64,000 nt of DNA from Ignavibacteriota bacterium (GTDB lineage: Bacteria > Bacteroidota > Ignavibacteria > UBA10030). A program made the translations under genes and the position numbers. Positions 5,301 to 62,494 of this stretch are shown in pieces (positions within the stretch are counted from its first letter, which is position 1; each line of letters opens with the position of its first letter). The stretch covers positions 310,366 through 374,365 of the forward strand of contig CAWHXW010000004.1 in NCBI GenBank assembly GCA_963833465.1, read 5' to 3'. The notes below the pieces were generated by a model. That model was given only the letters and a program-made list of their open reading frames with translations. It made no database searches and had not been told where the DNA came from.

Positions 5301-8300
5301 GTAGCTGTGAAGATTCCTGTCTTTATTCCGGTCTCGGTAAACAACACAGTATCAATTTGTCCATTCGAACTCGTATCTCGTAGGAAATATGTCTCTATTC
5401 TGGTTGTATCTTTGTTTAAATCCTGATCAATCAGTGTATCTATTATAGAGGCGCCGGGTAAGATCGATAGCGTTCCAGTCAGTGTTGCAGTGTTTCCTCC
5501 AATAACAGGCGTCTTCAAAACTTTTGTTGTACCCGAACCACCGTTCGATGCTAATGTATCTTTATAAGTAAGATATAAAGTATCACCAGCTTGAGCATTA
5601 AAAGTTACATTCTTTCCATTACTGCCTTTTGTTGTGCCAAAGGTTGTCGGTATTGTAGCTGTGAAGATTCCTGTCTTTATTCCGGTCTCGGTAAACAACA
5701 CAGTATCAATTTGTCCATTCGAACTCGTATCTCGTAGGAAATATGTCTCTATTCTGGTTGTATCTTTGTTTAAATCCTGATCAATCAGTGTATCTATTAT
5801 AGAGGCGCCGGGTAAGATCGATGTCGTTCCACTTAGATTTGCTGTATGTCCGCCGATAACAGCCGTCTTTGCAATAATAGTTGCACTTCCGCCATTGCCT
5901 TGTAATGAATCAAGGTATGATATAACAATTGTATCATTAGCTTGAGTATTAAACGTTACATTCTTTCCATTGCTGCCTTTTGTTGTGCCAAATGTTGTCG
6001 GTATCGTGGCGGTGAAGATTCCTGTCTTTATTCCGGTCTCGGTAAACAATACAGTATCTATTTGTCCATTCGAACTAGTATCTCGCAGGAAATATGTTTC
6101 TACTCTGGTTGTATCTTTATTTAAATCCTGATCAATTAACGTATCAATCATTGATACGCCGGGCAAAATAGACGGAGTGGCAGTTAATGATGCTGTGTGT
6201 CCACCTTTAAAAGTCGTTATTGCAGTGTCCGTTAAGCCAGGTGCGCCATCATAAGTGACAGTATCGTGATAGAAAACTAATAATGTATCTCCGACTTTTG
6301 CATTTATAATTCCATCATTGTTTGTGCCGCCAGACTTCCCATATTGAGTTTGAATTGTTCCGATGAAAACACTATCATTAAAACTTCGTTCAGTGACGGT
6401 GACAGAGTCACTTTCATTTGTCGCCTTATTATAGATATAAACCTTGTAGCTCTCTTTTGAAGAAGAATTACGATTCAAGTCATAATCTGTCACAAAGATA
6501 GTATCATTGTTTCCGGGATAAATACTTACGAGTGCGGAATCTCTTCCCCAATTAGCGCCAAGAACTTTTGTTATTGCGCTCTTCCATGTTCCCGATCCCC
6601 CGTTGAGTTGCATTGTATCCTTATATCCGACCCGCAAAGTATCGTTTTGATGGACATAGATATAACCAATGTTATCTGCACCGGCAATATATCCATAGCG
6701 TGTGTTCAAGTTTCCGATGAAAACGCTATCGTCTTTACTGCGCTTGGTTACTGTGATATCTTGATATTCCTTATTTACAATATTCGAATCCCGAACTGTA
6801 TAGCTTTGTATATTGTTTGTATCACTATTTAAATCATTGTCAGTAAGAGTTACTTGAACCGTATTCAATGGATAAATCTGCGAAGTCGCAGAGATCGAAG
6901 CAGTTGATCCGTATCGAACGAACGTCTTCGCATAGATCCATCCGCCATTCATCCCTGAACTGTTTACAGTATCCAAATATTTAATAATGATTGAATCACC
7001 TGCCTGAGCATTAAAGGTTACATTCTTTCCATTGCTGCCTTTTGTTGTGCCAAAGGTCGTCGGGTACTGTAGCAGTGAAGATTCCTGTGTTGATTCCGGT
7101 CTCTGTGAACAATACTGTATCTATTTGTCCATTTGAACTCGTGTCTCGCAAGAAATATGTCTCTATTGCCGCCGGATTGTAATTCAAATCTACATCTGTT
7201 AGAGTGTCGGAAATTGTGCCTCCGGGTTTAATAGATCGTGTAGCAGTAAGTGTTGCCGTATGTCCGCCGGTAACAATTGTCATCCAGGTTTTAAGCCGAT
7301 TCACACCTGCTCCGGTTGAATCGTTTACATCTGTATAAGAAATGCGAAGGGTATCGTTTGGTTTTACATTAAAGATATTATCGTTGTTTAACCCAGCGCT
7401 TGCGCCATAGATTGTTGCAATTTTACCAGTAAAAATTCCGGTGTTGACACCTGTTTCCGTTAATGTGATATTTTCATGTTCCTTCGTGACTATATTCGAG
7501 TCGGTTAATGTGACGGTCTGCTTGGTAGTTGTAACTGTATTGAGATCTTCATCAACCAATGTATAATAGACAGTATCACTTGGTATAATCGTGCTCGTGC
7601 CGTAGAGATGACCTGTTGCGTACTGATAAACAGTTAACGAAACAGATCCCGAACCTTTATATCTTTGAGCATTCGTATCTCGTGCTGTATTAGTAATGGT
7701 AGTACCATATGGAGTACTAATTTTGATCTTTGCTTTGAAGTTTAAAGTATCGATGGCTCCTGGTGCTAATGTTCCAACACTCCAGGTAATATATTGCGTG
7801 GTTGTTCCTGTCAATGTACCGGTACCTACTAATGCCACCGAAGTCGTATCGTAGGATGGAAGAGTGTCGCAAACCCATGTTAATGTAGATGCGCTATATG
7901 GAGAAATATTTTTAACGATAAGGTGATATTGCACTGTATCGCCCGCTTTTGACATTCCCGGGTCAAAATATTTCGTAATCGTTACAATGGGCGGAGGGAT
8001 TGCCGTATCTTTTACAGATTGGTTAACACCCGGTGCACTGACATTCGCTCTATTGATAAAAAGTGTATCTGTTGTGAATCTGGAACCGGGAATAACCCAG
8101 TATCGCACTGAATCGCTGACTCCCTGGATAAGTGATGTAAAGACATTCGTCCAAGTAAGTATAAATCCAACCGAGGAATCTCGGGTCGCGGTTGGTGCCG
8201 TACCTGGAGCGCCTGTTACATATTGAAATCCTTTTGGAAGTGAGTCAACGACTGTAATAGGATTCGCATGAGCAACTGATACATCCCAGTTGCCAGAATT

Positions 8301-9743
8301 TTTCACGCGGATTGTATAATGCAGCGTATCAGGAATAGGAGTATTGTATTTCGGGTAACCCTTATAATCTAAAAACGTTTTTGTTGTCTGCAAAAATACA
8401 GGTGTTACAACTTTAATGGATTTTGTTGCTGTATTATTATATAGGCGTCTATCGAACTGTTGGCTGGAATCAGATGCACTGTTCCGTAGTGTTGGATAAC
8501 TTGCAGGATCGTAATAGACATATACTGTTATATCAATAGTTGGAATTGTTACGTTGGGATAATTAATTCCGGGATATGTGAATCTTAGAATTGGGTTCCT
8601 AGAAGAATCTACGGTCCAACCTGATGCTGAGACTGAAACAAGTTTTGCACCCGGCTGAAGTGTGTCAATAACCCATATAGCTCCAGTTGGATCGGGACCA
8701 TTATTCGACGCCGTTAAATAATAATGCATCTGGTTGGCGACAATAATGCTGTCGCCTTTAGAGTCAAGAGAACATGTGTCGGTGATAGCGATATCGGAAT
8801 TTGAAGTGTCGGAGACAGATATAATTTCAGCATTCAGCACAACGTTATCTGCACCTGACGAGTAAACTGTAGTAGCAGTTGTATCACCCGGTGTAAGTAA
8901 GCTGGTAACAGGATACGTGTCGATATCCGTACCGTATGTAAATAAATAACCTTTGATCGGGACGAGAGTATTACTTACGGAATTGAATTGATTGCCAATA
9001 GGATTGTAGAAATCCGACAAACTCTGCCCATTAAATGCAAGGTCTTCAGAATAACCATTGGCTGGATCAGAATTTGCTAAATCACCCTCCCATGTTATGT
9101 CGGTAATCTTTCCGTCAACAGTGCCAAATGGTACATAGAAATTATTCGGTTTAAGAGTAATTTCATCTCCTTTAAACGTCTGCAATCCATCATAAATATT
9201 TATGGTATGTCTTATTTCAGGCGAACCTCCGTAGATAACGACTACCGCCCACCCTGCCACTACTGACGCAGTATTAACATAAATTGCAGTTGTATTATCT
9301 ACTCTTAAGCCGGTAAATATATAGCTGCCACTTTTATACTGTTTGACAATCGAAGTGACATCCGCAAATCCGCTAAAATAATATCGATTGCTTGTGTTAT
9401 AACTCGATACAGTATCCATTGGCAATGAACCGATAACGGTAGTTCCATGCAATGATACTGTGTCATCTGGAGTTGAACCGGATCCACACCAATAGAGATA
9501 TGCTGCAGTAACGGTGTCTCCACTTGGAATTGTGAGGCCACATGTATCTGAAGTTTTTAAAGCAGCAATAGAATCTGTTCTTAATGATCCGCCCATCATT
9601 ACATAGCTCATATTGCCGGAAAAGCTAGTGCGCCAGTTAATGGGCGTCTGAGCGTAAATTCTGCTGCCTATCGACAGAATTATTATTGCTAAGAATAATA
9701 TTCGAAAAGGAATCAGTGTGATATTTTTTTGTTGTGAGTACAA
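2348..9743 (-). CDS. Giant secreted adhesin-like protein (~2460 aa) with DUF11 domains and >=10 tandem 118-aa repeats; split into two ORFs (7011..9743 and 2348..6976) by a 1-nt frameshift near 7061-7067
   Basis: The upstream ORF's C-terminus (…TETGINTGIFTATVP) reads directly into the repeat consensus (…TTFGTTKGSNGKNVTFNAQA) once one base is removed from gtaCCCgac at 7061-7067. Signal peptide after a TTG start at 9743. DUF11 motifs occur at both ends (e.g. GDTLTYTIVYKNIGTSNATFLTVTDPNPNYTNYV). Confidence 0.7.
3390..7320. repeat. Tandem array of 354-bp coding repeats (118-aa unit, at least 10-11 copies), some adjacent copies >300 bp identical
   Basis: Copies at 5161-5514 and 5515-5868 are identical over ~310 nt; copies at 3411 and 3771 are also near-identical. 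Unit: ILPGASIIDTLxDQDLNKxxTxxETYFLRDTSSNGQIDTVLFTETGxNTGIFTATIPTTFGTTKGSNGKNVTF…. Confidence 0.85.
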
Positions 9744-9804
9744 TTTCCTTTGTCCGTTAATTAGATTCTTTTTAGTATAAATTAATCAGACGGTAATTTT
9801 TTTA

Positions 9805-10149
9805 TCATTTGTTTAAAGTATTTTTGAGTTCATAGAAATAATCTTTCAATACAAACTTTTCAGCGCCAATAGATTTTGCCTCTTTCTGAATTTCAGGATC
9901 AGACATTTGTGTCATTATGACAACGTGAGCTTCTGGAAATTTGGCTTTCAATTTTTTTGTCGCCGTCAATCCGTCTATTTTCTTCATCTCGACATCCATT
10001 ATGACCAAGTCTGGTTTGTACTTTTTGTATGCCGCCATGACATCTTTCCCGTCTGTACACTCATAGATTTCATCGTAGTACCCCTTGAGCATACTGATCA
10101 TCATTCGCCGAAATTGTTTGCTGTCTTCAACAATTAGCAATCGTTTCAT
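9805..10149 (-). CDS. Stand-alone response-regulator receiver (CheY-like REC) protein
   Basis: 114 aa; N-terminus LLIVEDS; contains DLVIMDVEMKKIDGL and a conserved Lys region. No output domain. Confidence 0.75.
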   Translation of the reverse strand: MKRLLIVEDSKQFRRMMISMLKGYYDEIYECTDGKDVMAAYKKYKPDLVIMDVEMKKIDGLTATKKLKAKFPEAHVVIMTQMSDPEIQKEAKSIGAEKFVLKDYFYELKNTLNK

Positions 10150-10368
10150 AAATCACCTCTTAAAAAGTATAGTCTAATGCCAATAAAAGGTCTCGAAATT
10201 CGCAAAGAAACTAAATAGTGACTTGCACACAGATGAAGAATTGTACACACCTATTTTTATAGGTGTTTCCACTTATTTATGAAAATTTATTTTTTAGGTA
10301 GTGCTTAGATGGGCAAAAGTGGTTTTTGCGTTTGTATCAAACAAATGCAAATAAAATACTGTATTTAA

Positions 10369-11037
10369 TTACAACGAAGATCTGTTTTCAATCGCAAACT
10401 TAAGAAGGGCATGGCTCCCATGAATTTCGAGTTTTTCACAAATATTGGACCGATGATTTTCTACAGTGCGAAAGCTAATCTTTAACACGTCTCCAATTTC
10501 TTTGCTCGTTTTATTTTCCGAAATCATGCGCAGAACTTTACGTTCTGTTTTTGTAAGATTTTCTAACTGTGGTTTCTTTTTCAAAAGCAATCTTGCACGG
10601 TCGCTTCTGTTCACCAGATGTTCAGAGATTGAAGGGCTGAGAAAATAACGCCCTTCAGATACAGTTTTGATACTGTTCACAACATCGGTCACTGCACTTT
10701 CTTTTAACACGTATCCTTTCACACCAAGATCCATCACTTCATTGAACATATCTTCTTCTTTGTACATCGTGAGAAAAACAATATCAACTGGAAGATGACG
10801 TTTGATAATTTCTTCGGCTACCTGAAGGCCGTTCATGCCGGGCATTTCGATATCCAAAACGATGATGTCCGGTTTTAATTCTTCAGCCAATTGGAGAGCT
10901 TGATTTCCATCTGCAGCTTCACCGGCTATTTCGATGGAACCTTCATTGCCAATTGCCTGAATGAGACCTTTCCGAAATATTGGATGATCATCCGCGATGA
11001 GAACTCGTAGTTTCGTCAGTGCTATCTGTTTTTTCAT
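10369..11037 (-). CDS. NarL/FixJ-family response regulator (REC + LuxR-type HTH)
   Basis: Contains RVLIADDHPIFRKGL…DIIVLDIEMPGMNGL, plus a C-terminal LTKTERKVLRMISENKTSKEIGDVLKISFRTVENHRSNICEKL helix-turn-helix. Confidence 0.85.
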   Translation of the reverse strand: MKKQIALTKLRVLIADDHPIFRKGLIQAIGNEGSIEIAGEAADGNQALQLAEELKPDIIVLDIEMPGMNGLQVAEEIIKRHLPVDIVFLTMYKEEDMFNEVMDLGVKGYVLKESAVTDVVNSIKTVSEGRYFLSPSISEHLVNRSDRARLLLKKKPQLENLTKTERKVLRMISENKTSKEIGDVLKISFRTVENHRSNICEKLEIHGSHALLKFAIENRSSL

Positions 11038-14000
11038 GAGTTTTTATTGTTATAAGAATTCGTGTTCCATGACCGGGAACAGATTCGATCTGTACAATTC
11101 CTCCGAGCACACGTGCTCGTTCTTTTAAACCTTGCAATCCTAATCCTTGAGTATCTTCAATTTTTATTGATGAACCTTCGAATCCTGTTCCATTATCTTC
11201 AATAGTAATATTGAATCGGTCATGCCATTCCTTGATTAAGACGCGTGCTGTTGTCGCATTTGCATGTTTAAGAATGTTATTAATGCACTCTTGGACAATT
11301 CTGTACACATGAATTTCCATTTCTTTCGCAAGTACATTATCGATCATACCAATATCCGCAGTAAACTTAATCGAAGAAGTACTCGATGCTCGATTAATAA
11401 TAGATTCTATGGCTCGGCGCAAACCGAGCCGATCAATTTGATACGGACGAAGATTGTACGCAATTTCTCGAGTTTCTTGAATTGCTTGCGATGCAGTACT
11501 GGATATTTCATCCAGTTGCTCGCGAATATTTTTCTTGTTCTTAAGATCACTCAATGCGAGCAATGCTCGATTTTTAATAATCAGGAGTTCTTGTCCAATA
11601 CTGTCATGCAATTCCGCGGCGATTCTTTTCCGATCAGCTTCAGCCAAATCGAGCAATCGATGCGTGAATGAATGCTGCTCATCAAGCAATCGTCTGCGCC
11701 GGCGCTCCTGTTGATAATAAACGGCATAAGCGATAAGGATAATACAACTAATTACTGCGATGCGAAAGTCACCATGTCTCCCACATCGCCGGATGCACAA
11801 TAAGCTTGACTGATGCACCTTGCATATTCCATATTCCGTCATTGTTGGCGGCAATAACATGGAAAATATATTCTCCTGATGACAAATTTGTAAAGTAAGC
11901 CACTCGGCGCTGTCGTACATCTACCCACTCTCCGTGCAAGCCTTCAAGCCAAAATTTAAATTGTGTGTGTCGTGGATTTGTAAAATTCAATGCAGAGTAA
12001 TGAATTTCTATCTGTTGTCTCCGGCCATAAGGAATTTCAATAGGTGATGTCAGCGGATACTCGGTTTGATTAACGAGAACATGTTCGATATGAACGGGCG
12101 GAACACCTGTGTTGATTTTCATTTTTTCAGGATCGATAATCGCCAATCCTTTGATGGTTGGAAAAAGTAATTTGCCATCTCTCGTTTTCCATGCTGCAGG
12201 TTGAAATCCGCCATTGGTTTCATCGGTAGGCATTCCACTCTCGGTGCCATAGGCAATACTTGTAATCGAAGGAATCTTTCCGTCAGCAAATTCATTGAGC
12301 TGTTTTCGGCTGACACGATAGATTCCCCTGTTGCAGCTCATCCATAAATTTTGTTTTTCATCTTCAAGGATAGCTGAGACAACATTATCATAGAGTCCTT
12401 CTTGCATTGAGTACCGTGTAAATGTTCCATCTTTCAATCGATTGAGGCCGCCGCCATATGTTCCAATCCAGAGGACACTATCTGCATCTTCATAAATCGA
12501 ACGAACATAATTATGGGAAAGTCCGTTGGAAGTTGTATAAACGGTTATTTTTCCGTTTTCGTATTTATTCAATCCATCGAGTGTGCCAATCCACATTGCG
12601 CCTGAATGATCCTGAAGAAATGTTCTTACACTCGAATTTGACAAGCCATCCTTAACAGTGATCGAGTGAAACGCACCATCCTTATAGAAGGTCACGCCGC
12701 CGCGATCGGTTCCCATCCATACGACACCGTCGCGATCACAATATAATGACAGTACAGTATTATCCGCCAGCCCATCGTCCGTTGAATAATTTTTCATTAT
12801 CCCATTTTTATAACGCCAAACACCGCCGCCATAACTTCCTGCCCAGAGAGCACCAGTCGCATCTTCTGTGATCGACCAAATACTTTCTGGCCGAAACCCA
12901 TCTTTCTCTGTAAACTGATAGAGTGATTTGCCAGACATCCGGTACAATCCGCCATCATTGGTTCCGATCCAGATATTATTTTTCGAATCTTGATAGACCG
13001 CCTCAACAATCTGATGATGGAGACCTTCTTTGGTGCCGACAACATCAATAAGTTTATCTTTTATTCGGATAAGGCCTTCGCCGTCTGTTCCGATCCAGCG
13101 ATTTCCTTCACAGTCAATAAAACAAGTTTGGATTTTTGATGCCTTCATTCCATCTGGAAGATGCAGGCGAGAGAATTTCTTCGCAGGTTTCAATTTTCCA
13201 AAACTCACTCCGCCTATCAACCCTCCTACCCAATATGTGCTATCAAGGTCTCTTGTCATTGTAGTTACAAAGTAATCTGAAAGACCGTTGGCTCCGGTAA
13301 CCGATTCTTTTTTCCCACTAGATTCATGAAGCAACCCAAATGAATTACGGAACCATTCAGTGCCATCCGTGTCTTCAAATAAGAATGCAGGAACCCGGTG
13401 CAATTTTCGATCGATATTTAAGATGGTGTCAATTTTTCCGTTCATTACTCGATAGGCGGCACTATCAGCATTCAACCAAAGGGCGCCGCTTTTTGTTCGG
13501 TGAATAGATCGAAGAGGTCCTCTAATAACATTCTCAATATTTTGCAGCGGATAAAATTTTCCATTTTTGAAACATTGAACGCCGGCTCGAGTCCCAATCC
13601 ATAGAGCGGTATCAGAATCCTCATAAATTGTTAACACAAATTCATCTTTCAGTCCCTCGTGAATTCCATAATTGACAAATGATCCATTAGTATACTTTGC
13701 AAACCCTCCCCCTTCAGTGCCAATCCATATTCCTCCATCAAACGATTCGCAGAGAGAGAGAATACGATCCGATCGAAGTCCTTTGGATATACCTCCAAGC
13801 TGTGTAAATGTGATCCCATCAAATCGCACTAACCCGCCATAAGTGCCAATCCAAAGATATCCATCGTGAGTTTGTATAATAGCATTCGCTGAATTCTGCG
13901 GAAGTCCTTCTGATGTCGTCCAAACATTGATCACATATTGACTATGAAGTGAAACTGGAAATATCACAAGTGCAAGAATAACGAATAAGGATACAATATT

Positions 14001-14042
14001 AAATTTAAAATGAATAATACTCTCCTTATATATCGGTCGCAA
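10988..14042 (-). CDS. Sensor histidine kinase with periplasmic two-component-regulator beta-propeller repeats + Y_Y_Y domain, TM helix, HisKA_3 and HATPase_c; interrupted by a frameshift near 11768-11785 (ORFs 11769..14042 and 10988..11920)
   Basis: The 757-aa ORF has repeated GLPQN/WIGT beta-propeller motifs and ends …HPAMWETW. The TM helix (FRIAVISCIILIAYAVYY) and kinase core (ELHDSIGQ…, HATPase GxGxG) follow in the +1 frame. This architecture is normally one polypeptide. Start codon is TTG. Confidence 0.7.
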
Positions 14043-22192: not shown

Positions 22193-22921
22193 ATGAACGT
22201 TGACGTATTAGCAATTGGCGCACATCCTGATGACATCGAACTCGCTTGCGGCGGAACTATCGCTAAATTTGTTCAACAGGGATATAAAGTTGGACTCTGC
22301 GATCTAACACAGGGCGAGCTTGGCACACGCGGCACCAAGGAGATTAGAAAAGAAGAAGCGCAGCGGGCAGCAAGTATTCTTGGTGTTGTCACACGAAGGA
22401 ATCTGCAAATCCCAGATGGAAACATCGAAGTAAGCAGAAAAAATATTATTAATATTATCACACTGATTCGCGAGCTTCGTCCTGCAATCCTCATAATCCC
22501 GTACGCTATCGAACGGCATCCGGATCATGTGCACGCAAGTGAACTTTGCCGCGAAGCATGGTATTACAGTGGATTAGAAAAAATGAAAACAAAACTAAAC
22601 GGCAAAGCTCAGGAACGCCACCGCCCGCATCATTACTTTGAATTTATGCAATGGATGGAATTCGATCCGTCATTTATTGTTGACATTAGCAGCTCGTTTG
22701 ATTTGAAGATGAGATCTGTACGCGCACATGCTTCGCAATTTTTCAATCCAAAAAGCAAAGAAAGCGAGACAAGATTGAGTGGACCTGACTTTTTAGAAGT
22801 AATCGAAACCAGATGCCGATATTTTGGTTCAAAGATAGGCGTAAAATACGGTGAGCCGTTTATTTCAAAATGGTCGCTCGGAATTGATAATCCATTTAGT
22901 TTTATTGTTAGCAGAGGTTAA
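22193..22921 (+). CDS. PIG-L/LmbE-family N-acetylglucosaminyl deacetylase (BshB1-like)
   Basis: VLAIGAHPDDIELACGGT…HPDH motifs. True start is the internal ATG at 22193; the upstream part of the track ORF is low complexity. Confidence 0.75.
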   Translation: MNVDVLAIGAHPDDIELACGGTIAKFVQQGYKVGLCDLTQGELGTRGTKEIRKEEAQRAASILGVVTRRNLQIPDGNIEVSRKNIINIITLIRELRPAILIIPYAIERHPDHVHASELCREAWYYSGLEKMKTKLNGKAQERHRPHHYFEFMQWMEFDPSFIVDISSSFDLKMRSVRAHASQFFNPKSKESETRLSGPDFLEVIETRCRYFGSKIGVKYGEPFISKWSLGIDNPFSFIVSRG

Positions 22922-22950: not shown

Positions 22951-24184
22951 ATGAATTTCTTTGATGATAAAATAGCAGAACGATTAGGAGGAATAAATTT
23001 TGGCAAGTCGACAGAAATTTACAAATTCGAATCAATCAAAAGGGCAAAAGCAGCAGCTAAAAAAGAACATCCCGAATTATCTTTAATAGACATGGGTGTT
23101 GGAGAACCTGATTGGCCTGCCGATCCGATTGTTGTTCAAACGCTTTCACAAGAAGCAGGAAAGCTGGAAAATCGGTGGTATGCAGATAACGGTATTCCTG
23201 AATTTCAAGAAGCGGCTGCAAATTATCTCAATCAAGTTTATAACATTAAGAATATAAATTCAACCCAGCAAATAATCCACGGAATCGGTTCAAAACCTAT
23301 TCTTGCGATGCTGCCGATTTGCTTAATTAATCCAGGAGACATACTTCTCACCACCATTCCCGGATATCCGGTCGCTGCAACATATACAAAATATTTAGGA
23401 GGAGAAATATTTAATCTTCCGCTGTTGGAATCAAATTCATTTTTGCCGGACTTAACATCAATTCCGCAATCAATTTTAAAAAAAGCAAAAGTACCTATAT
23501 CTGAATTATCCAAACAATCCAACCGGTGCAACTGCAACGCCAGAATTCTTTAAGCAAGTCGTGAACTTTGCACATCGCAATGGAATTGCAATCATTCACG
23601 ATGCCGCATACAGCGCTTTAACATACGATGGATACGAACCTCTCAGCTTTTTATCTGTTGATGGGGCGATGGATGTTGGAATTGAAGTCCATTCTTTGTC
23701 TAAAGCATTCAATATGACGGGCTGGAGAATAGGTTTTGTTTGCGGTAATCCCAATCTTGTTAAAGCCTACGCAACGGTAAAAGATAATTCAGATTCGGGG
23801 CAGTTTAGAGCAATTCAAAAAGCAGCGATTACTGCACTTACAAATATAGACATCACTAAAAAAACTGTTGAGAAATATTCTAGAAAATTTGAATTACTCG
23901 TTAAGGCATTATGCGAGGTTGGCTTTAATGCAAAAAAGCCGAAGGGATCTTTTTATTGTTATGTAAAAGCACCAAAGGGAACTGAGAATGGAGAGGAATT
24001 TAATACAGCTTCAAAATTTTCAGATTTTTTAATTCGAAAATCTTTAATCTCAACGGTACCATGGGATGATGCCGGTAATTACATTCGCTTCTCAGTTACA
24101 TTCGAATCTGATTCTATCCAAAAGGAAATCGAAGTAATTGAGGAAATGAAGAATAGGATGAAAAGATTAAAACTAAAATTCTAA
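22951..24184 (+). CDS. dapL: LL-diaminopimelate aminotransferase-like class I aminotransferase; two ORFs (22951..23553, 23561..24184) joined by removing one C at 23491-23496 (GTACC)
   Basis: The +1 frame after KAKV reads LYLNYPNNPTGATATPEFFKQVVNFAHRNGIAIIHDAAYS, and the PLP-lysine motif SLSKAFNMTGWRIG follows. Combined length ~407 aa matches DapL. Confidence 0.65.
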
Positions 24185-25287: not shown

Positions 25288-25669
25288 TTATTTCATCGCG
25301 CCGGTTTTCCCTTCGTACTTTGACGGGCATTTGGTCAGAACTTCTGTTGCGTGAAATTGATCGTTCATATATTTTCCTTTGACGACTACACTTGTTGCAA
25401 GATCAAAATTATTTGGCTTGGCACCATCTAAGACAACCTTGAGGATTTCGCCGCTGTCGTCTTTCAAGTAAAAAGTGTATTGAATTTTGTCGGCATCAAA
25501 ATAACTCTCGCGGTCTTTCACCCACTCGCCCTTCACCTGTATTTTTTTCTGTGTTTTCTTTGCAAGGGCAAAGTCGCCGTATTCGACATTTGAATCGAAG
25601 AAATTTACTGCTCCCAGGTACTATACCAAAAGAAATAATCAAACCGCTAATTACGACTTTTAGATTCAT
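25288..25669 (-). CDS. ccmE: Cytochrome c-type biogenesis heme chaperone CcmE (CxxxY variant); frameshifted near 25617-25621
   Basis: ATG at 25669 gives MNLKVVISGLIISFGIV (TM helix). The +1 frame continues with GAVNFFDSNVEYGDFALAKK…KGEWVKD… (OB-fold). C-terminal LTKCPSKYEG has Cys in place of the canonical heme-binding His. Removing one G from cccaGGTACta restores a single ORF. Confidence 0.6.
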
Positions 25670-34885: not shown

Positions 34886-35717
34886 GCCGGGCGATGCGTT
34901 CTTCAGTCGGCGGATGCGTAGAAAACAATTTAGTTATCCCGCTGCCGGATAATGGATTGACTATAAACATATGCGCAGTTGCAGTGCCTGCATTTTCCAT
35001 CGGAATTTGTTCGGCGCCTTTCTCTAATTTGCGCAGCGCGTTGGCAAGACTCAACGGCCGTTGACAAATTTGCGCGCCTCCTTCATCGGCGGCAAATTCC
35101 CGTGAACGCGATACGGCAAATTGAATAAGCATTGCCGCAATAGGCGCAAGAATAATAAGAAAAATCTGGCCGACGGGATTCGAGTTTTCCCGATCCCTGC
35201 TTCCGCCTCCGAAGATGGAAGCATACATTGCCATCCTTGCTACAAATGTAATCGTTCCAGCCATCGCTGCCACAAGTGTCGCAATTAGAATATCCCGATG
35301 CTTAACATGCGCTAACTCATGCGAAATCACGCCTTCCAATTCATCATCCGAAAGTATGCGTAGAATTCCTTCGGTTGCCGCTACTGCAGCGTGCTCAGGA
35401 TTGCGTCCGGTTGCAAATGCATTTGGTGAATCGCCGGGAATAATATAAACCTTCGGCATTGGCAATTGTGCCTGTGCAGCAAGACGGCGCACAATACCGG
35501 TTAAGCGCGGAGCTTCAGCTTCTGTTACTTCTCTTGCGCCGTAAGTCATAAGTACGATTTTACTTGAGAACCAATACATTCCAAAATTCATCAGCAATGA
35601 AAACATAAACGCCATTACCAAACCTTGCTCGCCGCCAAGCCAATCTCCAATAAACAGCAGCAAGCCGATCATTAATGCCATTAGTAAAACCGTTTTCAGT
35701 GAATTTGTCATTTTCAA
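34854..35717 (-). CDS. htpX: Zinc metalloprotease HtpX (peptidase M48)
   Basis: [10 protein letters not shown] motif and 4 TM segments; ~287 aa. Confidence 0.85.
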
Positions 35718-36512
35718 TATCCTTTCAAAACATTTTCAAAGTGAACCAATAGAAAGTTACGAAAAAGTGTGCGGAGTTTCAATATAAGAGCAATTTGATA
35801 TGTTTTCAAAATTCAAGTCGGGAAGTAGATTTTATTCCTGCCTGATCGCAGTAATTGTCTTATCTTGTTCCCAAGTTCTGTTTGAAAACGCATTGTATGA
35901 CAAATATAATGAAGCGAAGCTTCGGAGAAAAGCTGTGGTTGTCCAAAAATTAATCTTGTCACATTGAACTTGTTTCAGGTCTGCAAAATTGGTAAAGAAA
36001 TAAATATAGATTCCAAATTAAATTCGGAATGACGCTATCTTTTGGAACTTTTAAACAGCCATAGCAAGAAGTTAATACTTGCGCAAAAATAGCTGCAAGT
36101 TGCTTGTTAAAATACGACAGATGAGTGAAAAATAAATCTTTAGATTATATTATTTTGTAATCATTTTTTTTAATTCCTACCTCGTTTTCAAACCCTGTTT
36201 AAGAATAATTACTATGAAGAAACCTATTTTATAACGTTCTTATTTTTATCATCACTCTATCTTTTTGTAAAGCACAAAGCAATTTTAGTAAAACAATGAC
36301 TATTAGTATGAACAATCATCCATATTATGTACATGATTTTATCTCTGAAACATTGAACGACAAGTTCCTTTATCCGAGCAAATAGTTCCACTCTCCCAAT
36401 TATTAGTTCAATAATCTATATTATAAATTGCAATAACGTTATAAGTCAATTCTAAAAAATTAGGTGTGATGAAGTGTATAAAGGTTTTCTGAAGATGGAA
36501 ACGAAAAAATAT

Positions 36513-37361
36513 TTATTTTCTTTTTAGCAGGCGGCGAAGTGTTTCAAGAACTAATTCCGGGCGCTCATCAAGGAAGTGGCGTGAGAAACGTCTTGCGCGC
36601 TGCACTTCGTTAGAATCAAGTTCGGCATAAATCAGGCATTCTTCCTGTAACTTCGCCGTAGAAATCAACTCTCCACCGGGCGATGTGACGTTAGAACCGC
36701 CCCAGAAGTTCACACCGTCTTCAAATCCCACTCTGTTGCTGAAAAGTACATAAATGTTGAGCAGCCGTGCAAATGTGCGATGGTGTTCGTAATTCACTAC
36801 TTGATTATCAAATTGTGTTCCTTCACCCGAAAGCCGTGTGGGGCTTGCAGTTAAGCAGAGAATGGCTTCCGCTCCATCAAGTGCCAGCAAGTACGGCAGC
36901 GATACATGCCAAAGGTCTTCACAGATAAGCATTCCCATGCGGCCAATTTTTGAATCGAACGCTGCAACACTTTTTCCGATGCCGAAGTATCTGCCTTCTT
37001 CAAACATTCCATAAGTCGGCGGATATATCTTGCGATGAATGTGTTTGATTTCACCATCTTCCAAAAACATAGCGCTGTTATAAATGCCGTAATGCGCACC
37101 GCTTTCGACAAATCCGACAGCAATGGATATTTTATGACTTTTTTCAAGCAATGAAGCAATAAATTTATTTTGAAAAGGATTAATTGCAACGTCCCATGCT
37201 AAATCCCGCAGTGTATAACCAGTAAGACTTAGTTCCGGGAAAAGAACAAGTTTCGCTCCATCCGCAATGGCGCGGTCAATAAATTCGAGATGGTGTTTGA
37301 GGTTCTGTTCAAACGCTCCGACACGGCAGTCAATTTGCGCTATGGCAGTTTTACACTTCAT
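36513..37361 (-). CDS. Carbon-nitrogen hydrolase family amidohydrolase (nitrilase superfamily)
   Basis: Catalytic triad context: FPELSLTGY (Glu), a conserved Lys, and MLICEDLWH (Cys). Confidence 0.75.
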   Translation of the reverse strand: MKCKTAIAQIDCRVGAFEQNLKHHLEFIDRAIADGAKLVLFPELSLTGYTLRDLAWDVAINPFQNKFIASLLEKSHKISIAVGFVESGAHYGIYNSAMFLEDGEIKHIHRKIYPPTYGMFEEGRYFGIGKSVAAFDSKIGRMGMLICEDLWHVSLPYLLALDGAEAILCLTASPTRLSGEGTQFDNQVVNYEHHRTFARLLNIYVLFSNRVGFEDGVNFWGGSNVTSPGGELISTAKLQEECLIYAELDSNEVQRARRFSRHFLDERPELVLETLRRLLKRK

Positions 37362-43429: not shown

Positions 43430-44399
43430 TCACAACCACGATTGAAGAATCGAAAACCTTACATCTGCATCGAGTGCTCCAATTAGCGAGCTAATATCTT
43501 CGATTCCATTTTCGCGGCAAAATTTTTCTAAGCCATCTACAATTTTTATGGAAATTGCCGGATCAATAAAATTCATTGTACCAATTTGCACAGCAGCCGC
43601 CCCGACGAGCAAGAATTCTATTACATCTTCTGTACCTGGCAATTCCGCCGATACCAAAAATCGGAATTTTCACTGCCTTGGCGACTTCATAAACCTTCGC
43701 AAGTGCAACAGGTTTAATAGCCGGTCCGGATAAGCCGCCTGTTACTGTAGAAAGTTTCGGTTTGCGTGTCTTTATATCCACTGCCATTCCGACAAGCGTA
43801 TTAATAACAGAAACTGCATCTGCGCCTGCTGACTCTGCAGCGCGGGCAAATTCCGAAATGTGTGTTACGTTCGGTGTCAGTTTAATGATGAGCGGTTTGT
43901 TTGTCAATTTACGAAGACGCGAAGTAATTTTCGCAGTCATTTTACAATCAGTTCCAAAACTCATTCCGCCTTCTTTTACATTCGGACACGAAACATTGAT
44001 TTCGTATCCGGAAATTCCATCTTCCTCTTCTAACAGACTAAGAACATCGCAGAATTCTTTAAGCGAACCTGCAGCAATGTTCACAATAATTCGTGTGTTG
44101 AGTGTGCGTAAGTATGGAAGTTTTTCCTCAATAAATGCATGAACACCGATGTTAGCAAGTCCGATTGAGTTAAGCATACCGCTTGCTGTTTCAACAATGC
44201 GTTGAGGCGGATTGCCGGCACGTGGTTTCCAAGAAAGCGATTTTGTAAAAATTCCACCTATCCGATTCATATCGACAAAACCACGAACCTCATCACCATA
44301 TCCAAAAGTACCGGAAGCAACAAAGACACGGTTCTTGAATTCCACACCGCTAATTGTGAATGATGTTTTTATTCCACTCGCCTTTAATGACGTTGTCAT
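43430..44399 (-). CDS. pyrD: Dihydroorotate dehydrogenase (class 1B) catalytic subunit; two ORFs (43563..44399, 43430..43657) joined by removing one base at GTACC 43632-43636
   Basis: Contains NVSCPN and KIPIFGIGGIA. The +1 frame continues EDVIEFLLVGAAAVQIGTMNF, which is the canonical PyrD C-terminus. Confidence 0.75.
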
Positions 44400-49838: not shown

Positions 49839-49949
49839 TCGTTGTCATTGAGTTCAGATATAAGAACATCAGATTGAATCAGAAGGTTTCATCATCGTAT
49901 TTGAATACTCTGACCTTTTTTGTATATTTAAACTTAAGATACCAAACTT

Positions 49950-50036
49950 GGAGAGGTGCGAGAGTGGTTGAATCGACCGGTCTCGAAAACCGGAATAGCC
50001 GTAAGGCTATCGAGGGTTCGAATCCCTCCCTCTCCG
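49950..50036 (+). tRNA. tRNA-Ser (anticodon CGA)
   Basis: Sequence GGAGAGGTGCGAGAGTGGTTGAATCG…, anticodon loop CTCGAAA, long variable arm, T-arm GAGGGTTCGAATCCCTC. Confidence 0.85.
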
Positions 50037-50091
50037 CTTTTCCATGCATTTATTTGGAAATGATATAATAGATTAGGATATTTAATTAACT

Positions 50092-50178
50092 GGAGAGATG
50101 CAAGAGCGGTTGAATTGGCTACCCTGGAAAGGTAGTGTATCCGTAAGGGTACCGTGGGTTCGAATCCCACTCTCTCCG
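50092..50178 (+). tRNA. tRNA-Ser (anticodon GGA)
   Basis: Sequence GGAGAGATGCAAGAGCGGTTGAATTGG…, anticodon loop CTGGAAA, long variable arm containing GGGTACC, T-arm GTGGGTTCGAATCCCAC. Confidence 0.85.
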
Positions 50179-50207
50179 CAATACTTCTTGATACGAATAA
50201 AATAATA

Positions 50208-50381
50208 TGAAACATAAAAAACTAATTGGATTATTGCTTCTTTTTATCGGATTGATGGTAATTTTAGGAATGCTCTTTGCAAACGGCAATCATATTTACT
50301 GGTTTATAGTTGACGTAGCTAATGTTGTAATCTGTTGCGGCAGCGGTATATATTTCTTTTTTTGGAAAAAACAAGTCTAAC
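50208..50381 (+). CDS. Small hypothetical membrane protein (57 aa)
   Basis: ORF MKHKKLIGLLLLFIGLMVILGMLFANGNHIYWFIVDVANVVICCGSGIYFFFWKKQV, two predicted TM helices. Weak evidence. Confidence 0.25.
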
Positions 50382-55308: not shown

Positions 55309-55341
55309 AAAACCCGTTGAGTTTTTCTAGACGGGTTTTTT
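55309..55341 (+). terminator. Rho-independent terminator of cspA
   Basis: AACCCGT…ACGGGTT hairpin followed by a T6 run. Confidence 0.7.
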
Positions 55342-55388
55342 ATTGTACTGAATCAAACCTTTTACGTCCAATATTTAGATTTTGCGAC

Positions 55389-55982: not shown

Positions 55983-56055
55983 ATTGCTGTCTAAAAACAA
56001 AAAAAGCGATGCATAACGATCGCTTGATAAAAGATTTTTATTTGATATTAGAAAT

Positions 56056-56463: not shown

Positions 56464-56605
56464 GTGACTGCAATGTACTTTTTGGTTATGACTTTCGCAA
56501 GTACAGAATAATTAAATTTATTATCAAACCATTTTTTAGGTAAATTGACGCAGGTCACTAAATCCTTTTTTAACTGGTTAAAGAGTTAATTTTAATGCAA
56601 TTGTT

Positions 56606-57487: not shown

Positions 57488-57493
57488 AGATTA

Positions 57494-58636
57494 TTATCCG
57501 ATTGGCGGGTATGAAGCGAAGAGTTGTCCCCATTGAGATTGTTTTAACCATTTCTTATATACAGGTTTATCAATCAACATCCATCTATAATAATCATGAT
57601 AGATTTCTGAACCAAGGATGAATAGATGGACGACAGGGGTTCGAAAAAAGAAGCTTTGTACTCGCTTTAAAGGGCCGTACCAAAAAATTGCTGCTGCGAC
57701 TTTTACAACATTCGTACCGACCGAAAAATTCCAATTCAAATCAGAAATATTATCTCCAACGACCTTTATTTCACGCGGATCACCGCAGCCCAATCCGCAT
57801 TGATGCGCAAGATTTATATATTTGATAGAAAGTGGATCAAATCCCATCATTTTTGCTGAGACGGAATCGATCGCCACTTGATCGGCGCTGGCAAGTATTA
57901 CATTTTTTTCTACAGGAATCATTGTGCGTGGTCCTGGTCCATTGCCGGCAGTTGTGCCATCCATGACAGCAAATACACCAGAGTGAATCTCCTTTTGTAT
58001 CGCCAACAAATCAACAAGTGTTTCATGAATCCACGAATGTGTGTAATGACGGTGTGTATTAAGCAATCCTCCAAATGCGTTTTTCATCGCTCCTGTAGTA
58101 GTTGCATGAATATGACATTTTACAGTAGGCAGGTGAAGAATGTTTTTGCCAAAGAAGTAATCCGGAATCCGAATGCCTTCCGGGAATATTTGATCGAGAA
58201 CTAGCATTGGCGACTTTGGCTTATACTCAATCCACTTCATATCACTATCTTTAAAATTAAGAAGAACCGGAATTTTATATTTTTTAACCAGCGGCTTGTA
58301 TTTATTCAGGTCTTCACCTTTGAAAGTATCCGTTACTACTGTTTTATTCTGCACGCACACTATATCGTTAAAACCGTTATTTTTCAAACTAAGAATGGAT
58401 CCTTCCAGTTGCCATGGTGTTGTATTTGCGCCGGGGAAAGGGAAATGCCATGAGAGGTTGTCTTTCAGAATTGTTGGTACACCAAGTTTCAACGTGTTCT
58501 TTATTTCAGCAAGTTCGACTGCGCGCTGAATATCTTCCAGAACTGTTTGCGGGGTGGTTTTCACAACAGCAACTTTTGGTATACTAGTCCGAAGATTATA
58601 GATTCTTTGCGGGCGTCTCGGTTCGGGCAATTTCAT
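57494..58636 (-). CDS. DUF362-domain protein
   Basis: 380 aa. Assigned from memory of the DUF362 family pattern, not from a defined motif. Moderate confidence. Confidence 0.4.
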   Translation of the reverse strand: MKLPEPRRPQRIYNLRTSIPKVAVVKTTPQTVLEDIQRAVELAEIKNTLKLGVPTILKDNLSWHFPFPGANTTPWQLEGSILSLKNNGFNDIVCVQNKTVVTDTFKGEDLNKYKPLVKKYKIPVLLNFKDSDMKWIEYKPKSPMLVLDQIFPEGIRIPDYFFGKNILHLPTVKCHIHATTTGAMKNAFGGLLNTHRHYTHSWIHETLVDLLAIQKEIHSGVFAVMDGTTAGNGPGPRTMIPVEKNVILASADQVAIDSVSAKMMGFDPLSIKYINLAHQCGLGCGDPREIKVVGDNISDLNWNFSVGTNVVKVAAAIFWYGPLKRVQSFFFRTPVVHLFILGSEIYHDYYRWMLIDKPVYKKWLKQSQWGQLFASYPPIG

Positions 58637-58657
58637 TTTAGAACATCCATTTAAAGT

Positions 58658-59542
58658 TTAGTGATAATAAATAATAAATACGCAAACAAGAAACCAAAGC
58701 AGAATGTTTATAACCAAAGGCATGTCGCTCAACAATAAGTGCATCGGATTATCGTCTATTTTCCTTCCTCGCATTAGATAGATATATCGAAAAATACCAA
58801 ACAATACAAACACTGTAGTGAAAATAAGATTTTCCGTCCCATAAATAGTCACCGTCCGTTCAGCGACTGTATAGAGTGCGTACGAAATTGCCATTCCAGA
58901 TGCCGCTACAGTCATAATTTGATCCAAGAACGCCACATCATACTGTTTCAATACCGGGCGCGAAGCGTAGGAATCTGTCACAGCACTAAGCATCAATTCG
59001 CCGCGTCTTTTAGAGACTGCAAGAAACACTGAAACGAAAAGTGTACATAATACTAACCAAGAAGAAATCACAACTTCTATGGCAAAAACACCAGCAAGAA
59101 CGCGAAGCATAAATCCTGCCGCAATGATAAACACATCCACTAAAACAACTTGCTTCAGCCGATAAGAATATGCTATGTTTAGTAACCCATACAAAGCTAT
59201 CACAAAGCAGAAATGCAAATTAAGAAATGGAATCAGGCTGACTATTAGTACAAACAAGATCAAAATAATTACAATAGCATCAAATGTACTTAAAGAGCCG
59301 GATGCGAGAGGACGATGTTTTTTTTGGGGATGAAGTCTATCTGCATCACGATCTGCAATATCGTTGATGATATACACAATACTGGAGACAATACAGAAAC
59401 CGGAGAAAGCAATCATTTCCTTCCAAAAGTACATCGCTTCGAATAGATGTTTCGAAAAAATAAGCGGTGCAAAGAGAAAAACATTTTTAAGCCATTGAGA
59501 AGGGCGCAACAATTCAGTTACGCCCTCAATTTTCTTTTTCAT
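58658..59542 (-). CDS. UbiA-family prenyltransferase, decaprenyl-phosphate phosphoribosyltransferase-like
   Basis: NDIADRDADRLHPQKKHRPLASG motif and 8-9 TM helices. Confidence 0.7.
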   Translation of the reverse strand: MKKKIEGVTELLRPSQWLKNVFLFAPLIFSKHLFEAMYFWKEMIAFSGFCIVSSIVYIINDIADRDADRLHPQKKHRPLASGSLSTFDAIVIILILFVLIVSLIPFLNLHFCFVIALYGLLNIAYSYRLKQVVLVDVFIIAAGFMLRVLAGVFAIEVVISSWLVLCTLFVSVFLAVSKRRGELMLSAVTDSYASRPVLKQYDVAFLDQIMTVAASGMAISYALYTVAERTVTIYGTENLIFTTVFVLFGIFRYIYLMRGRKIDDNPMHLLLSDMPLVINILLWFLVCVFIIYYH

Positions 59543-59602
59543 TGCACCTCTCTCCTTTATTTATTGAAAGGTGATGCACATTCATCGAGAAGACTATGCT
59601 TA

Positions 59603-61471
59603 TTATGTCCTCCCAAACCTTTTATCAAGTTCTTCTAGCGGAATTTTAACAATCACCGGCCTGCCATGTGGACAAACATACGGCACTTTAGTAAGAAATA
59701 AATGTTCGATCAGCACAACCATCTCTGTTGTATTCAATCTATCGCCCGATTTGATCGCTGCTTTGCACGCAAAAGATTTCGCCAGATTGTCTCGTACATC
59801 TTTCACGCCCATGTGCTCGTTGTTTTTGAATTCATCTAACACTTCCAGCAATATTTTTTTTTCTTTTCCAATGCGGACATCCGCCGGAATACCATCTATC
59901 ACAACCGTGTTTTTACCGAATAAACGCATGTCGAAGCCAAGCCGGACAAGGTCTGGCAATAATTCTTTTGCTAAGGAATAATCGCTTGCACCAAGGTCAA
60001 TGGTTTCCGGGAACAAAAGCTGCTGCGAAGACGGTAAAGTGTTCTCAAAATTCGCCATCACGCGTTCATAGAGAATTCGTTCATGCGCAGCGTGTTGATC
60101 AATAATCATCAATCCATTATGAATCTGTGAAATAATATATTTGTTATGTGCCTGCCAAATCGGTCTGCTTTCCGGTATCTGCGATTGATCTAACGCCGAT
60201 CTCTGCCCAAGTATATGATTGAGTGAAGACAAAGAAGAAGACCCGTCAAATGGCAACGGAGATTCAGAATTTGAAACAGAAGATTTTATATCATCAAGGC
60301 CAATAATATTAGATATTGTTTGTACTGATTGTTCGCCAAATCGAACGTTAGGGTGAAACGGAAACACTGGAGCGCCAGATTGATCAATAATTCCTTGTTT
60401 CCATGTTTGTTCGCTAAATTGAAACTTAGCGTCAAGCGGTGAAATTGCGTTTCCTTCACGAAACGACATGGATGGAATCAAATCGTTTGCCGCGAGCGCT
60501 TTCCGCACAACAGACAGAATAATGCGATAGACATTCGATTCATTTTCAAATTTCACCTCCATCTTTGATGGATGGACATTGACATCAATTTTCTTTGGAT
60601 CAATTGTAAGATTTAGAATAAAGAACGGAAACGATCCTTTCTCCAATAAATGTTCATACGCTTGAAAAACAGCATGGTTAATCATTCGGCTAAAAATAAA
60701 TCGTCTATTCAGAAAAACAAATTGTTCCACGCGGCTTTTGCGTGAAAAATTTGGTTTACCGAGGAATCCATTCACAGACATTAATTCATTGACGTCATCA
60801 AATTTGAACATAAAACTATATTGAGATTTACCAAATACTTCCGCTACGCGTCTTTCGATGTCTTGCGATTTCAGATCGAGCATAACTTCGTCGTCACTTG
60901 CATAAAACCATTCAATTTCAGGATATGCAAGTGCCATCCTGACAATTACATCGGTTATATTTTTTAGCTCCGTGTATTTTGTTTTTAGAAAATTTCGCCG
61001 CGCAGGAGTATTGTAAAATAAATTACGAACTGTAATGTTTGTCCCGCATTCCAGTGCCGACTTGGATTTCTGTTTTATCTCGCTGCCTTCGATCCTGATG
61101 TATGTTGCAAGATCATCAGAATCTGTTCGAGTTTTTAATTCCACTTGCGCAACTGCTGCTATAGAAGCAAGCGCTTCACCGCGAAATCCAAGCGTCCGGA
61201 TTTCTTCCAGATCGCTTGCAGAATGAATCTTGCTCGTAGCATGCCTTCGGAATGCGAGCGATGCATCTTGTTCCGACATTCCTTCACCATCATCCACTAC
61301 TTGGATTGATGCTTTACCAGCATCTCTGATTATTACGCTGATGCGCCTCGCATTGGCATCAAGTGAATTCTCAATTAATTCTTTGACAACAGCAGCAGGA
61401 CGCTGCACAACCTCACCAGCGGCAATTTTGTTGGATAATTCAGGCGATAATATGTGAATCTTATAAGACAC
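59603..61471 (-). CDS. mutL: DNA mismatch repair protein MutL
   Basis: N-terminal GHKL ATPase (IAAGEVVQRPAAVVKELIENSLDA), a DNA-binding region, and a C-terminal dimerisation domain. 622 aa. Confidence 0.9.
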   Translation of the reverse strand: MSYKIHILSPELSNKIAAGEVVQRPAAVVKELIENSLDANARRISVIIRDAGKASIQVVDDGEGMSEQDASLAFRRHATSKIHSASDLEEIRTLGFRGEALASIAAVAQVELKTRTDSDDLATYIRIEGSEIKQKSKSALECGTNITVRNLFYNTPARRNFLKTKYTELKNITDVIVRMALAYPEIEWFYASDDEVMLDLKSQDIERRVAEVFGKSQYSFMFKFDDVNELMSVNGFLGKPNFSRKSRVEQFVFLNRRFIFSRMINHAVFQAYEHLLEKGSFPFFILNLTIDPKKIDVNVHPSKMEVKFENESNVYRIILSVVRKALAANDLIPSMSFREGNAISPLDAKFQFSEQTWKQGIIDQSGAPVFPFHPNVRFGEQSVQTISNIIGLDDIKSSVSNSESPLPFDGSSSLSSLNHILGQRSALDQSQIPESRPIWQAHNKYIISQIHNGLMIIDQHAAHERILYERVMANFENTLPSSQQLLFPETIDLGASDYSLAKELLPDLVRLGFDMRLFGKNTVVIDGIPADVRIGKEKKILLEVLDEFKNNEHMGVKDVRDNLAKSFACKAAIKSGDRLNTTEMVVLIEHLFLTKVPYVCPHGRPVIVKIPLEELDKRFGRT

Positions 61472-61539
61472 TTATAATAATAAATGAAAATTTAAAATTG
61501 AAAACACAATTTCGATTTAAACTTAATTTCTTTCACTTC

Positions 61540-62494
61540 CTATTTTTCAATTTCATTCCCTTCAAACAAAGCATTTACAAATGTACGACGATCAAATATT
61601 TGAAGATCGTCTATTCTTTCGCCAACACCAATAAATTTTACAGGCATCTTCATCTCGTTGCTGATTGCAAATACGATTCCACCCTTCGCAGTACCATCAA
61701 GTTTTGTAATTACAAGTCCGGTCAGGTCAACGGCATTTGCAAAATGTCTCACTTGCTGCAAGCCATTTTGTCCAGTCGTGGCATCGAGAACTAACAACAC
61801 TTCATGCGGAGCGCCAGGCAGACACTTTGCCATCACTCGTTTGATTTTTTTTAACTCTTCCATCAAATTTGTTTTTGTATGCAGGCGCCCAGCCGTATCG
61901 ATTATAACTACATCGGCTTGCTTCGACAAGGCAGAATTGATTGTATCAAATGCTACCGATGCAGGATCCGCGCCATGTGATTGCTGTACAATATCCACAC
62001 CAGCACGTTCCGCCCAAATTTTCAGTTGCTCGTTCGCAGCAGCACGAAAAGTATCCGCCGCTCCGATTACAACTTTATGCCCTGCTTGACGAAACTTATA
62101 AGCCATCTTGCCGATAGTCGTTGTTTTGCCTACTCCATTTACTCCAACGACCATCACGACAAACGGCCTACACGATAAAGGTAATGGTGTCAAGGATGAC
62201 TCTTTTTCATTTTCGCTATGCAAGACCGTTTCCATTACTTCTTTTAATAAAGAAATAAGCCGAGATGTAGATTCGTACTTTTTCATCTTTTACACGGTGT
62301 TTTAAGCGAGACAAGATATTATCTGCTGTCTGGACTCCAACATCGCTTGCAATTAAAATATCTTCCAATTGATTTAACATTTCGTCGTCAATTGCACTCT
62401 TGGCTGCGGCAAGCTGTTGAACTTTACCAACAAATGAATCCCGCGTCTTTGAAAGTCCAGATTTGAGTTTGGAAAGTGTGTCTAAAATTCCCAT
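61540..62494 (-). CDS. ftsY: Signal-recognition-particle receptor FtsY; two ORFs (62216..62494 N-domain, 61540..62286 G-domain) separated by a 1-nt frameshift at 62271-62283
   Basis: N-domain helical bundle (…ILSRLKHRVKDEK) continues in the +1 frame as ESTSRLISLLKEVMETVL, then the G-domain (VGVNGVGKTTTIGKMA, DTAGR, TKLDG). Confidence 0.75.

Follow-up and report, generated by a model that had tools for sequence, protein, structure and literature searches.

Single-base frameshifts at GTAC motifs in an Ignavibacteriota metagenome contig are most likely sequencing consensus errors

Why should six genes of one bacterium each be split by a single extra nucleotide (nt), five times of six at the same four letters? 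The question is raised by a 64,000-nt stretch, here called the window, spanning positions 310,366 to 374,365 of contig CAWHXW010000004.1. This 1,258,017-bp contig belongs to an uncultured Ignavibacteriota metagenome-assembled genome held in NCBI and ENA. A first-pass annotation, made from the letters alone, reported six 1-nt frameshifts and placed five of them at GTAC. We conclude that the frameshifts are very probably not mutations but errors of the consensus, and that nanopore miscalling of modified GTAC is their most likely source. The proteins concerned (FtsY, DapL, PyrD, CcmE, a sensor kinase and an adhesin) are almost certainly intact in the real bacterium.

All six frameshifts were found at the coordinates, and with the letters, that the annotation had quoted. 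They are listed below; the second assembly named for the kinase is introduced further on.

7061..7067, minus strand: adhesin frameshift. The window has CGGGTAC (minus strand GTACCCG) in place of the true GTACCG, through one spurious base in the G-run 7062-7064.
11768..11773, minus strand: sensor-kinase frameshift. The window has GTCACC (minus strand GGTGAC) and contig L003 of the second assembly GGGAC; the true reading is probably GGTAC.
23491..23496, plus strand: dapL frameshift. The window has GTACCT where the true reading is GTACT; one C of 23494-23495 is spurious.
25617..25621, minus strand: ccmE frameshift. The window has GGTAC (minus strand GTACCTG) where the true reading is GTACTG; one G of 25617-25618 is spurious.
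43632..43636, minus strand: pyrD frameshift. The window has GTACC (minus strand AGGTACA); the extra base lies within a 10-nt minus-strand stretch, GCCAGGTACA.
62275..62283, minus strand: ftsY frameshift. The window has GTACTTTTT (minus strand AAAAAGTAC); the extra base is one of those at 62278-62283.

Every lesion is a +1 insertion. Each split gene carries one such lesion, and a single-base deletion heals it. The open reading frame (ORF) map and family searches identified exactly six genes divided over two reading frames. Pfam and NCBIfam searches of the ~60 window ORFs, which gave end-to-end domain matches, and inspection of the ORF-free gaps revealed no further truncated gene. Hence, the six are a full census and not a selection. 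The ORF-poor stretches contain tRNAs, an intact 67-amino-acid cold-shock-like ORF, a gene leaving the window edge and one blank stretch of ~800 nt.

The lesions could be localised to between 1 and 10 nt, and an intact GTAC is present at five of the six. With the spurious base in brackets, four are of the form GTAC[C] (on the other strand [G]GTAC), one falls in an A/T run next to GTAC and the last interrupts the motif itself, as GT[C]AC. Were six positions drawn at random, five or more would lie within 5 nt of a GTAC with a probability of 4.7e-7. Coincidence is negligible, as the annotation had argued, though its premise that GTAC is rare does not hold. The window, with 39.7% G+C, contains 177 GTAC sites (~1 per 362 nt). 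A second-order Markov model predicts 159 and mononucleotide composition 228. The motif is neither rare nor avoided in this DNA.

We compared the window with a second assembly. This consists of four short Logan contigs, L001-L004, from run ERR11594402, retrieved by exact-protein look-up. The overlap is 10,574 nt at 99.88-100% identity, and all evidence of disagreement given here is at the level of assemblies. The contigs cover the adhesin, kinase and dapL sites; the ccmE, pyrD and ftsY sites fall outside them. Eight of 12 look-ups returned no record, which limits the comparison to 10.6 kb; differing start-codon choices are the likely cause. Those without a record were aimed at neighbours of the ccmE, pyrD and ftsY sites and at two unrelated genes; they comprised ccmC and pyrK (two starts each), a CDP-alcohol phosphatidyltransferase gene, mutL, rho and a GFO/IDH/MocA-family oxidoreductase gene. 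The two assemblies differ at eight positions.

23495: window GTACCT, Logan GTACT; dapL is intact (410 amino acids) in L001.
7063: window GTACCCG, Logan GTACCG; adhesin frameshift site.
11771: window GGTGAC, Logan GGGAC; the kinase frame is unbroken (at least 586 amino acids) in L003.
7822 (7822..7826, minus strand): window GTACCT, with a 910-amino-acid frame kept; L004 GTACT, where gene calls break.
22722 (22718..22722, plus strand): window GTACG, L001 GTACA; Arg or His in a PIG-L family gene.
11460 (11456..11460, minus strand): window GTACG (Ala), L003 GTACA (Val); substitution beside GTAC.
7718 (7702..7718, minus strand): window GTACT, L004 GTACG; substitution beside the GTAC at 7714.
7703 (7702..7718, minus strand): window GTAC, L004 GGAC, in plus-strand view; substitution inside the GTAC at 7702.

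Seven of these differences lie within 1 nt of a GTAC, of which 31 could be compared, and the eighth is at the kinase site. No difference was found in the ~10.4 kb away from GTAC-type sites. The chance probability of this distribution is 4e-12. The differences comprise two A/G, one A/C and one T/G-type substitution, and four indels. About a quarter of the comparable GTAC sites disagree. Long homopolymers in the 10.6 kb compared show no disagreement, and nor do canonical GAAC/GTTC sites. The extra base is absent from the Logan contigs at all three frameshift sites that they span. The annotation's proposal of a systematic platform artefact tied to GTAC is thereby supported; at the other sites, homologues or paralogues fix the true reading.

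A consensus collapsed from co-occurring strains would place indels where the strains differ. The metagenome is indeed complex, with contig numbers in the run that reach millions. However, mixed strains should leave scattered, mostly synonymous substitutions. None were found in ~10.4 kb outside GTAC, against eight at GTAC-type sites. We consider that strain collapse has next to no likelihood.

Neither assembly is right throughout. As arbiters between them we used reading frame, homologues and paralogues. L004 is wrong at 7822, because the adhesin frame breaks there. At 11460, the column holds Ala in 61 of 89 homologues and Val in none; judged by these relatives, the window is probably right and L003 wrong. 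In total, at least six sites are in error in the window and at least three in the Logan contigs. Confusion of GTACT with GTACCT runs both ways between the assemblies. The Logan contigs also have GGAC in place of GTAC twice, at window 7703 on the plus strand (L004:2640-2699) and at the kinase on the minus strand (L003:961-1319). This suggests that the second motif base (T, or A on the other strand) is a focus of signal disturbance.

The true reading of each split gene was then fixed individually. For dapL, ORFs 22951-23553 and 23561-24184 (plus strand) match NCBIfam positions 3-182 and 206-410 of 410, respectively. L001 reads GTACT at this site and encodes an intact 410-amino-acid aminotransferase. 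Corrected DapL matches NF004937 over positions 3-410 of 410, with 666 bits. For ccmE, an ORF of 82 amino acids covers only Pfam positions 32-98 of 99. The 120 CcmE homologues examined (up to 91% identity) read FGIVLGAVNFF. In the window, V17 comes from the upstream frame and L18-G19 from the downstream one. Hence, one C of GTAC[C]TG must be the extra base. An earlier shift is ruled out, because the downstream frame contains TAG.

The pyrD ORF 43563-44399 (minus strand) matches positions 5-249 of 304. Corrected PyrD aligns without a gap to Lactococcus lactis PyrDB (PDB 1EP1) through GIGGIASTEDVIEF. This confines the lesion to 10 nt containing GTAC, and most simply the extra base is one G of GG. 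The corrected protein matches NF005574 over positions 5-302 of 304, with 407 bits. For ftsY, ORFs 62216-62494 and 61540-62286 (minus strand) match positions 2-44 and 41-279 of 279. Fifteen aligned FtsY homologues read ...VK(D/E)EK-YES... gap-free, with the Tyr nearly invariant. Hence, the extra base lies in AAAAAG abutting TAC, that is in the T5/A5 run or the first base of GTAC. Corrected FtsY matches TIGR00064 over positions 2-279 of 279, with 370 bits. Each of corrected DapL, PyrD and FtsY is a single full-length equivalog match above the curated cutoff.

We also looked for hidden substitutions near GTAC. FtsY departs from columns that are at least 90% conserved five times and CcmE never; no such departure lies within 20 nt of a GTAC. 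A search with corrected FtsY did not find an intact protein from the same species. The sole 100% match was the truncated fragment from the source itself, and the next was 84% identical.

The adhesin or S-layer-like protein is encoded by ORFs 7011-9743 and 2348-6976 (minus strand), in different frames. Five paralogous repeats within it read TAT(I/V)PTTFGTTKG, which identifies the extra base as one C of GTAC[C]CG. L004 lacks this base. One deletion creates a single ORF of 2,464 amino acids, window 2348-9743 (minus strand). The most upstream start is a TTG at 9743, beside a GTAC (window 9738-9745), and a plausible signal peptide, KNITLIPFRILFLAIIILSIGSRIYAQ, follows. The annotation had suspected a seventh lesion at this start (ATTGTACT). 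This is unsupported: L004 is identical there, and TTG can itself serve as the start codon ahead of the plausible signal peptide.

Several other features of this gene can be recorded. The corrected adhesin contains seven or eight near-identical tandem modules of ~118 amino acids, with the motif LFTETG(I/V)NTGIFTAT(I/V)PTTFGTTKGSNGKNVTF. DUF11 repeats are also present, and the protein weakly matches the anammox Kustd1514 S-layer family. Neighbouring genes encode DUF11 proteins too. The Logan gene call (L004:775) begins 49 codons downstream of the TTG and would delete the predicted signal peptide.

The sensor histidine kinase, with a propeller/Y_Y_Y domain, is encoded by ORFs 11769-14042 and 10988-11920 (minus strand), again in different frames. 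The annotation had set this site apart as the exception to the GTAC rule. In L003, a frame of at least 586 amino acids runs unbroken through the junction and reads Trp-Asp-Phe there. The column where L003 has Asp holds W in 82, Y in 5 and D in none of 89 homologues, so L003 is probably wrong here too. The two closest homologues read WETWYFRI at the junction. We infer from their WETWYF that the codon is TAC (Tyr) and the DNA GGTACT. In all likelihood, the kinase site is a masked GTAC rather than an exception. If so, GGT[G]AC in the window and GG[G]AC in L003 are two different miscalls of one GTAC, and all six frameshifts are at this motif.

Could the lesions be genuine? GTAC might be hypermutable in this lineage, as the annotation had allowed, or the population might be heterogeneous. 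The split genes would then be real pseudogenes or minority alleles. A site-specific mutational process could also produce assemblies that differ only at GTAC. However, it would have inactivated 6 of ~60 genes, including ftsY, dapL, pyrD and ccmE, which are expected to be indispensable; ftsY, dapL and pyrD are core genes. Apart from its one 1-nt lesion, no gene shows decay. Conserved columns are kept in FtsY and CcmE, and three corrected proteins are full length above equivalog cutoffs. The second assembly, albeit possibly from a shared read set, reproduces the lesion at none of the three sites that it spans. It has implausible GTAC variants of its own: a broken adhesin frame, and Asp and Val residues found in no homologue. 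No mechanism is known that causes ±1 indels with flanking substitutions at a 4-nt palindrome. Real mutation, including a genuinely hypermutable motif, is very unlikely. A related proposal supplies a cause, in the form of a GTAC-directed nicking or modifying enzyme combined with faulty repair. Some of the genome copies would thereby acquire real ±1 indels, along with flanking substitutions, and different assemblers would choose different true alleles. We regard it as highly improbable.

Programmed ribosomal frameshifting, or other recoding at a signal containing GTAC, could also place two frames in one functional gene. Recurrence of the motif is all that speaks for it. The homologues of FtsY, CcmE, PyrD and the kinase, and the adhesin repeats, are colinear and unshifted. 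The second assembly encodes the genes in one frame, and no slippery heptamer is common to the sites. Recoding is so improbable as to be negligible.

The ends of the Logan contigs are also informative. Three of the eight are no more than 40 nt from a frameshift site (chance ~2e-5). L002 ends exactly at 43632, on the pyrD GTAC; L001 comes to 14 nt from the ccmE site without reaching it; and L004 ends 38 nt beyond the adhesin site. Since a k-mer assembly breaks at exactly these places, the reads of ERR11594402 are suggested to disagree there. Most simply, this run and the source assembly rest on data of one kind, and possibly on the very same reads. As to the other ends, L003 and L004 both stop at 10370-10372, just after a response-regulator stop codon with no GTAC within 120 nt. 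Further ends are at 22306 and 42082.

What platform produced the reads? A scan for an exact 30-mer from the window gave no match among GTDB representative genomes. In a protein-based scan, the nearest relatives were Ignavibacteriota genomes of other species (at most 88% identity) from fen, peat and soil metagenomes. Several of these are products of the Microflora Danica long-read project, which assembled Nanopore reads alone and polished them with one round of Medaka (PMC12313526). The megabase contig of a metagenome-assembled genome, the ENA run accession and these relatives together point to Oxford Nanopore with a single Medaka-type polish.

The annotation had named two platforms, the first being 454 pyrosequencing, with errors arising from its TACG flow order. 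Five of the six lesions do alter the length of a 1-5-nt run, a typical class of 454 error. However, a metagenome contig of 1,258,017 bp far exceeds what 454 yields from metagenomes. Most of the runs grow from 1 to 2 or from 2 to 3 nt, lengths that 454 reads accurately. Substitutions account for half of the discrepancies, and the kinase indel, inside GTAC, does not alter the length of a homopolymer. Both the run accession and the related genomes indicate long-read projects of recent date. A 454 origin is barely plausible. The second candidate, nanopore error linked to base modification, is the better fit.

How might such errors arise? A base modification of GTAC, such as GTm6AC or a methylated C, would be outside the competence of the basecaller model. 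It would distort the signal of GTAC and its immediate neighbours. Reads would then conflict at these positions, and differing consensus procedures would reach differing wrong answers. Six sites in the window would thereby have gained one spurious base each. GTAC-specific Type IIP restriction-modification systems exist, with enzymes of the RsaI type. The motif is a known methylation target, modified to GTm6AC by M.Hpy99XII (PMC3936762). Nanopore consensus errors at modified short motifs that survive polishing have been described (PMC10687267, PMC11610573, PMC11610603). Our pattern fits this documented class: errors are on the motif and one base either side, and only a fraction of sites are wrong in each consensus.

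Several observations weigh against modification-linked miscalling. Published errors of this kind are mainly substitutions, whereas +1 indels are more prominent here than purine/purine or pyrimidine/pyrimidine exchanges. We found no paper in which nanopore errors are tied to GTAC in particular. Among the ~60 window ORFs, Pfam and NCBIfam detected neither a DNA methyltransferase nor a restriction gene. GTAC is not depleted as restriction avoidance would predict (177 observed, 159 expected). Errors reach only about a quarter of the sites compared, and no rule in flanking sequence separates these from the rest. All six corrected sites read GTACT/AGTAC on one strand, but GTAC sites in general do so in about half of cases (roughly P = 0.02), and unaffected sites include contexts identical to affected ones. 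Finally, ERR11594402 may share the source read set, in which case the second assembly is not an independent technology.

Sequence context alone might be considered, with the basecaller or polisher mis-sizing a short G/C run next to GTAC and modification irrelevant. The two-way confusion of GTACT and GTACCT, the lack of a methyltransferase in the window and the minority of sites affected are all compatible with this. Conversely, a generic weakness at GTAC would hit every nanopore genome and be widely reported, and we found no such report. In published cases, errors restricted to a motif are confined to particular strains and vanish when the DNA is amplified (PMC10687267, PMC11610573). In addition, our discrepancies include substitutions within and beside the motif. 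A context-only origin is unlikely. Another variant retains modification but makes it non-canonical and partially occupied, either a phosphorothioate (GpsTAC) or a hypermodified base, in place of ordinary methylation. This would account for both the miscalling of about a quarter of sites and the dominance of indels. We think that it has only a slim chance of being correct. Miscalling of a modified GTAC is the explanation that we favour.

If so, the six "pseudogenes" should be disregarded biologically, since they are not a feature of the genome. The practical value of the finding is to warn of quality problems in this assembly and in the proteins that databases list from it. Truncated pieces of FtsY (231 amino acids) and the kinase (276 amino acids), both from the source contig, are already in the public record. 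For this reason, we also rejected the idea that someone had planted the frameshifts in the window. Motif-linked errors in long-read metagenome-assembled genomes thus spread to protein databases and to completeness and pseudogene statistics. If the rate in this one 64-kb window held genome-wide, the extrapolation would be of the order of a hundred false frameshifts per Mb-scale genome, with missense errors next to GTAC in addition. The error pattern is also an indirect pointer to biology, as the organism probably modifies GTAC. Such patterns could be used for motif-aware repolishing or methylation-based binning.

Some further observations concern other parts of the window and its relatives. Other 4-nt palindromes are depleted relative to Markov expectation: CTAG (28 against 67.5), GGCC (41 against 97.6), GATC (202 against 292) and CATG (161 against 221). 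This may reflect restriction avoidance for those motifs. The blank stretch, 35717-36513 (~800 nt), is between an M48 peptidase gene and a nitrilase-family gene and holds nothing recognisable: no ORF of at least 60 amino acids, no tRNA and no Rfam match at gathering score. Two tRNA-Ser genes in tandem (49950-50037 and 50092-50179) lie beneath a 93-amino-acid ORF at 49934-50215 (minus strand), which is almost certainly spurious. The related bin MFD01476.bin.2.68 has two DXS loci on different contigs (L007, L050), both 87% identical to the DXS of the window. This could be a duplication or a mixed bin.

How does the GTAC pattern compare with known systems? The closest are modification-mediated nanopore errors: those at GCAGC and GCTGG in Listeria (PMC10687267), the "ambiguous positions" at RACG/CGTY in Klebsiella (PMC11610573) and strand-specific mismatches (PMC11610603). 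In common with these, a single short lineage-specific motif is involved and only part of its sites are wrong in the consensus. Calls are likewise inconsistent, answers depend on the pipeline, polishing is survived and false allelic differences result. The published cases are dominated by A/G and C/T substitutions, whereas here +1 insertions that split genes occur alongside A/G, A/C and T/G differences. GTAC was not found as a motif in those studies, and in our case we infer both platform and modification. Type IIP systems such as H. pylori HpyAXII / M.Hpy99XII (PMC3936762) act at the same 4-nt palindrome and could supply the required modification. No corresponding gene was seen in the 64-kb window, and GTAC is not depleted. 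Phosphorothioation at GpsTAC, a minor Dnd motif (PMC9521924), shares the tetranucleotide, and its fractional site occupancy resembles the error-prone sites here. This likeness is purely speculative; the canonical GAAC/GTTC sites are free of discrepancies and no dnd genes were seen in the window. Lastly, the lesions resemble the homopolymer indels of nanopore and 454 sequencing, in that five of six lengthen a run (G/C from 1 to 2 or 2 to 3; A/T from 4 to 5). Unlike homopolymer indels, the runs are very short and long homopolymers agree across the 10.6 kb; the errors follow GTAC and not run length.

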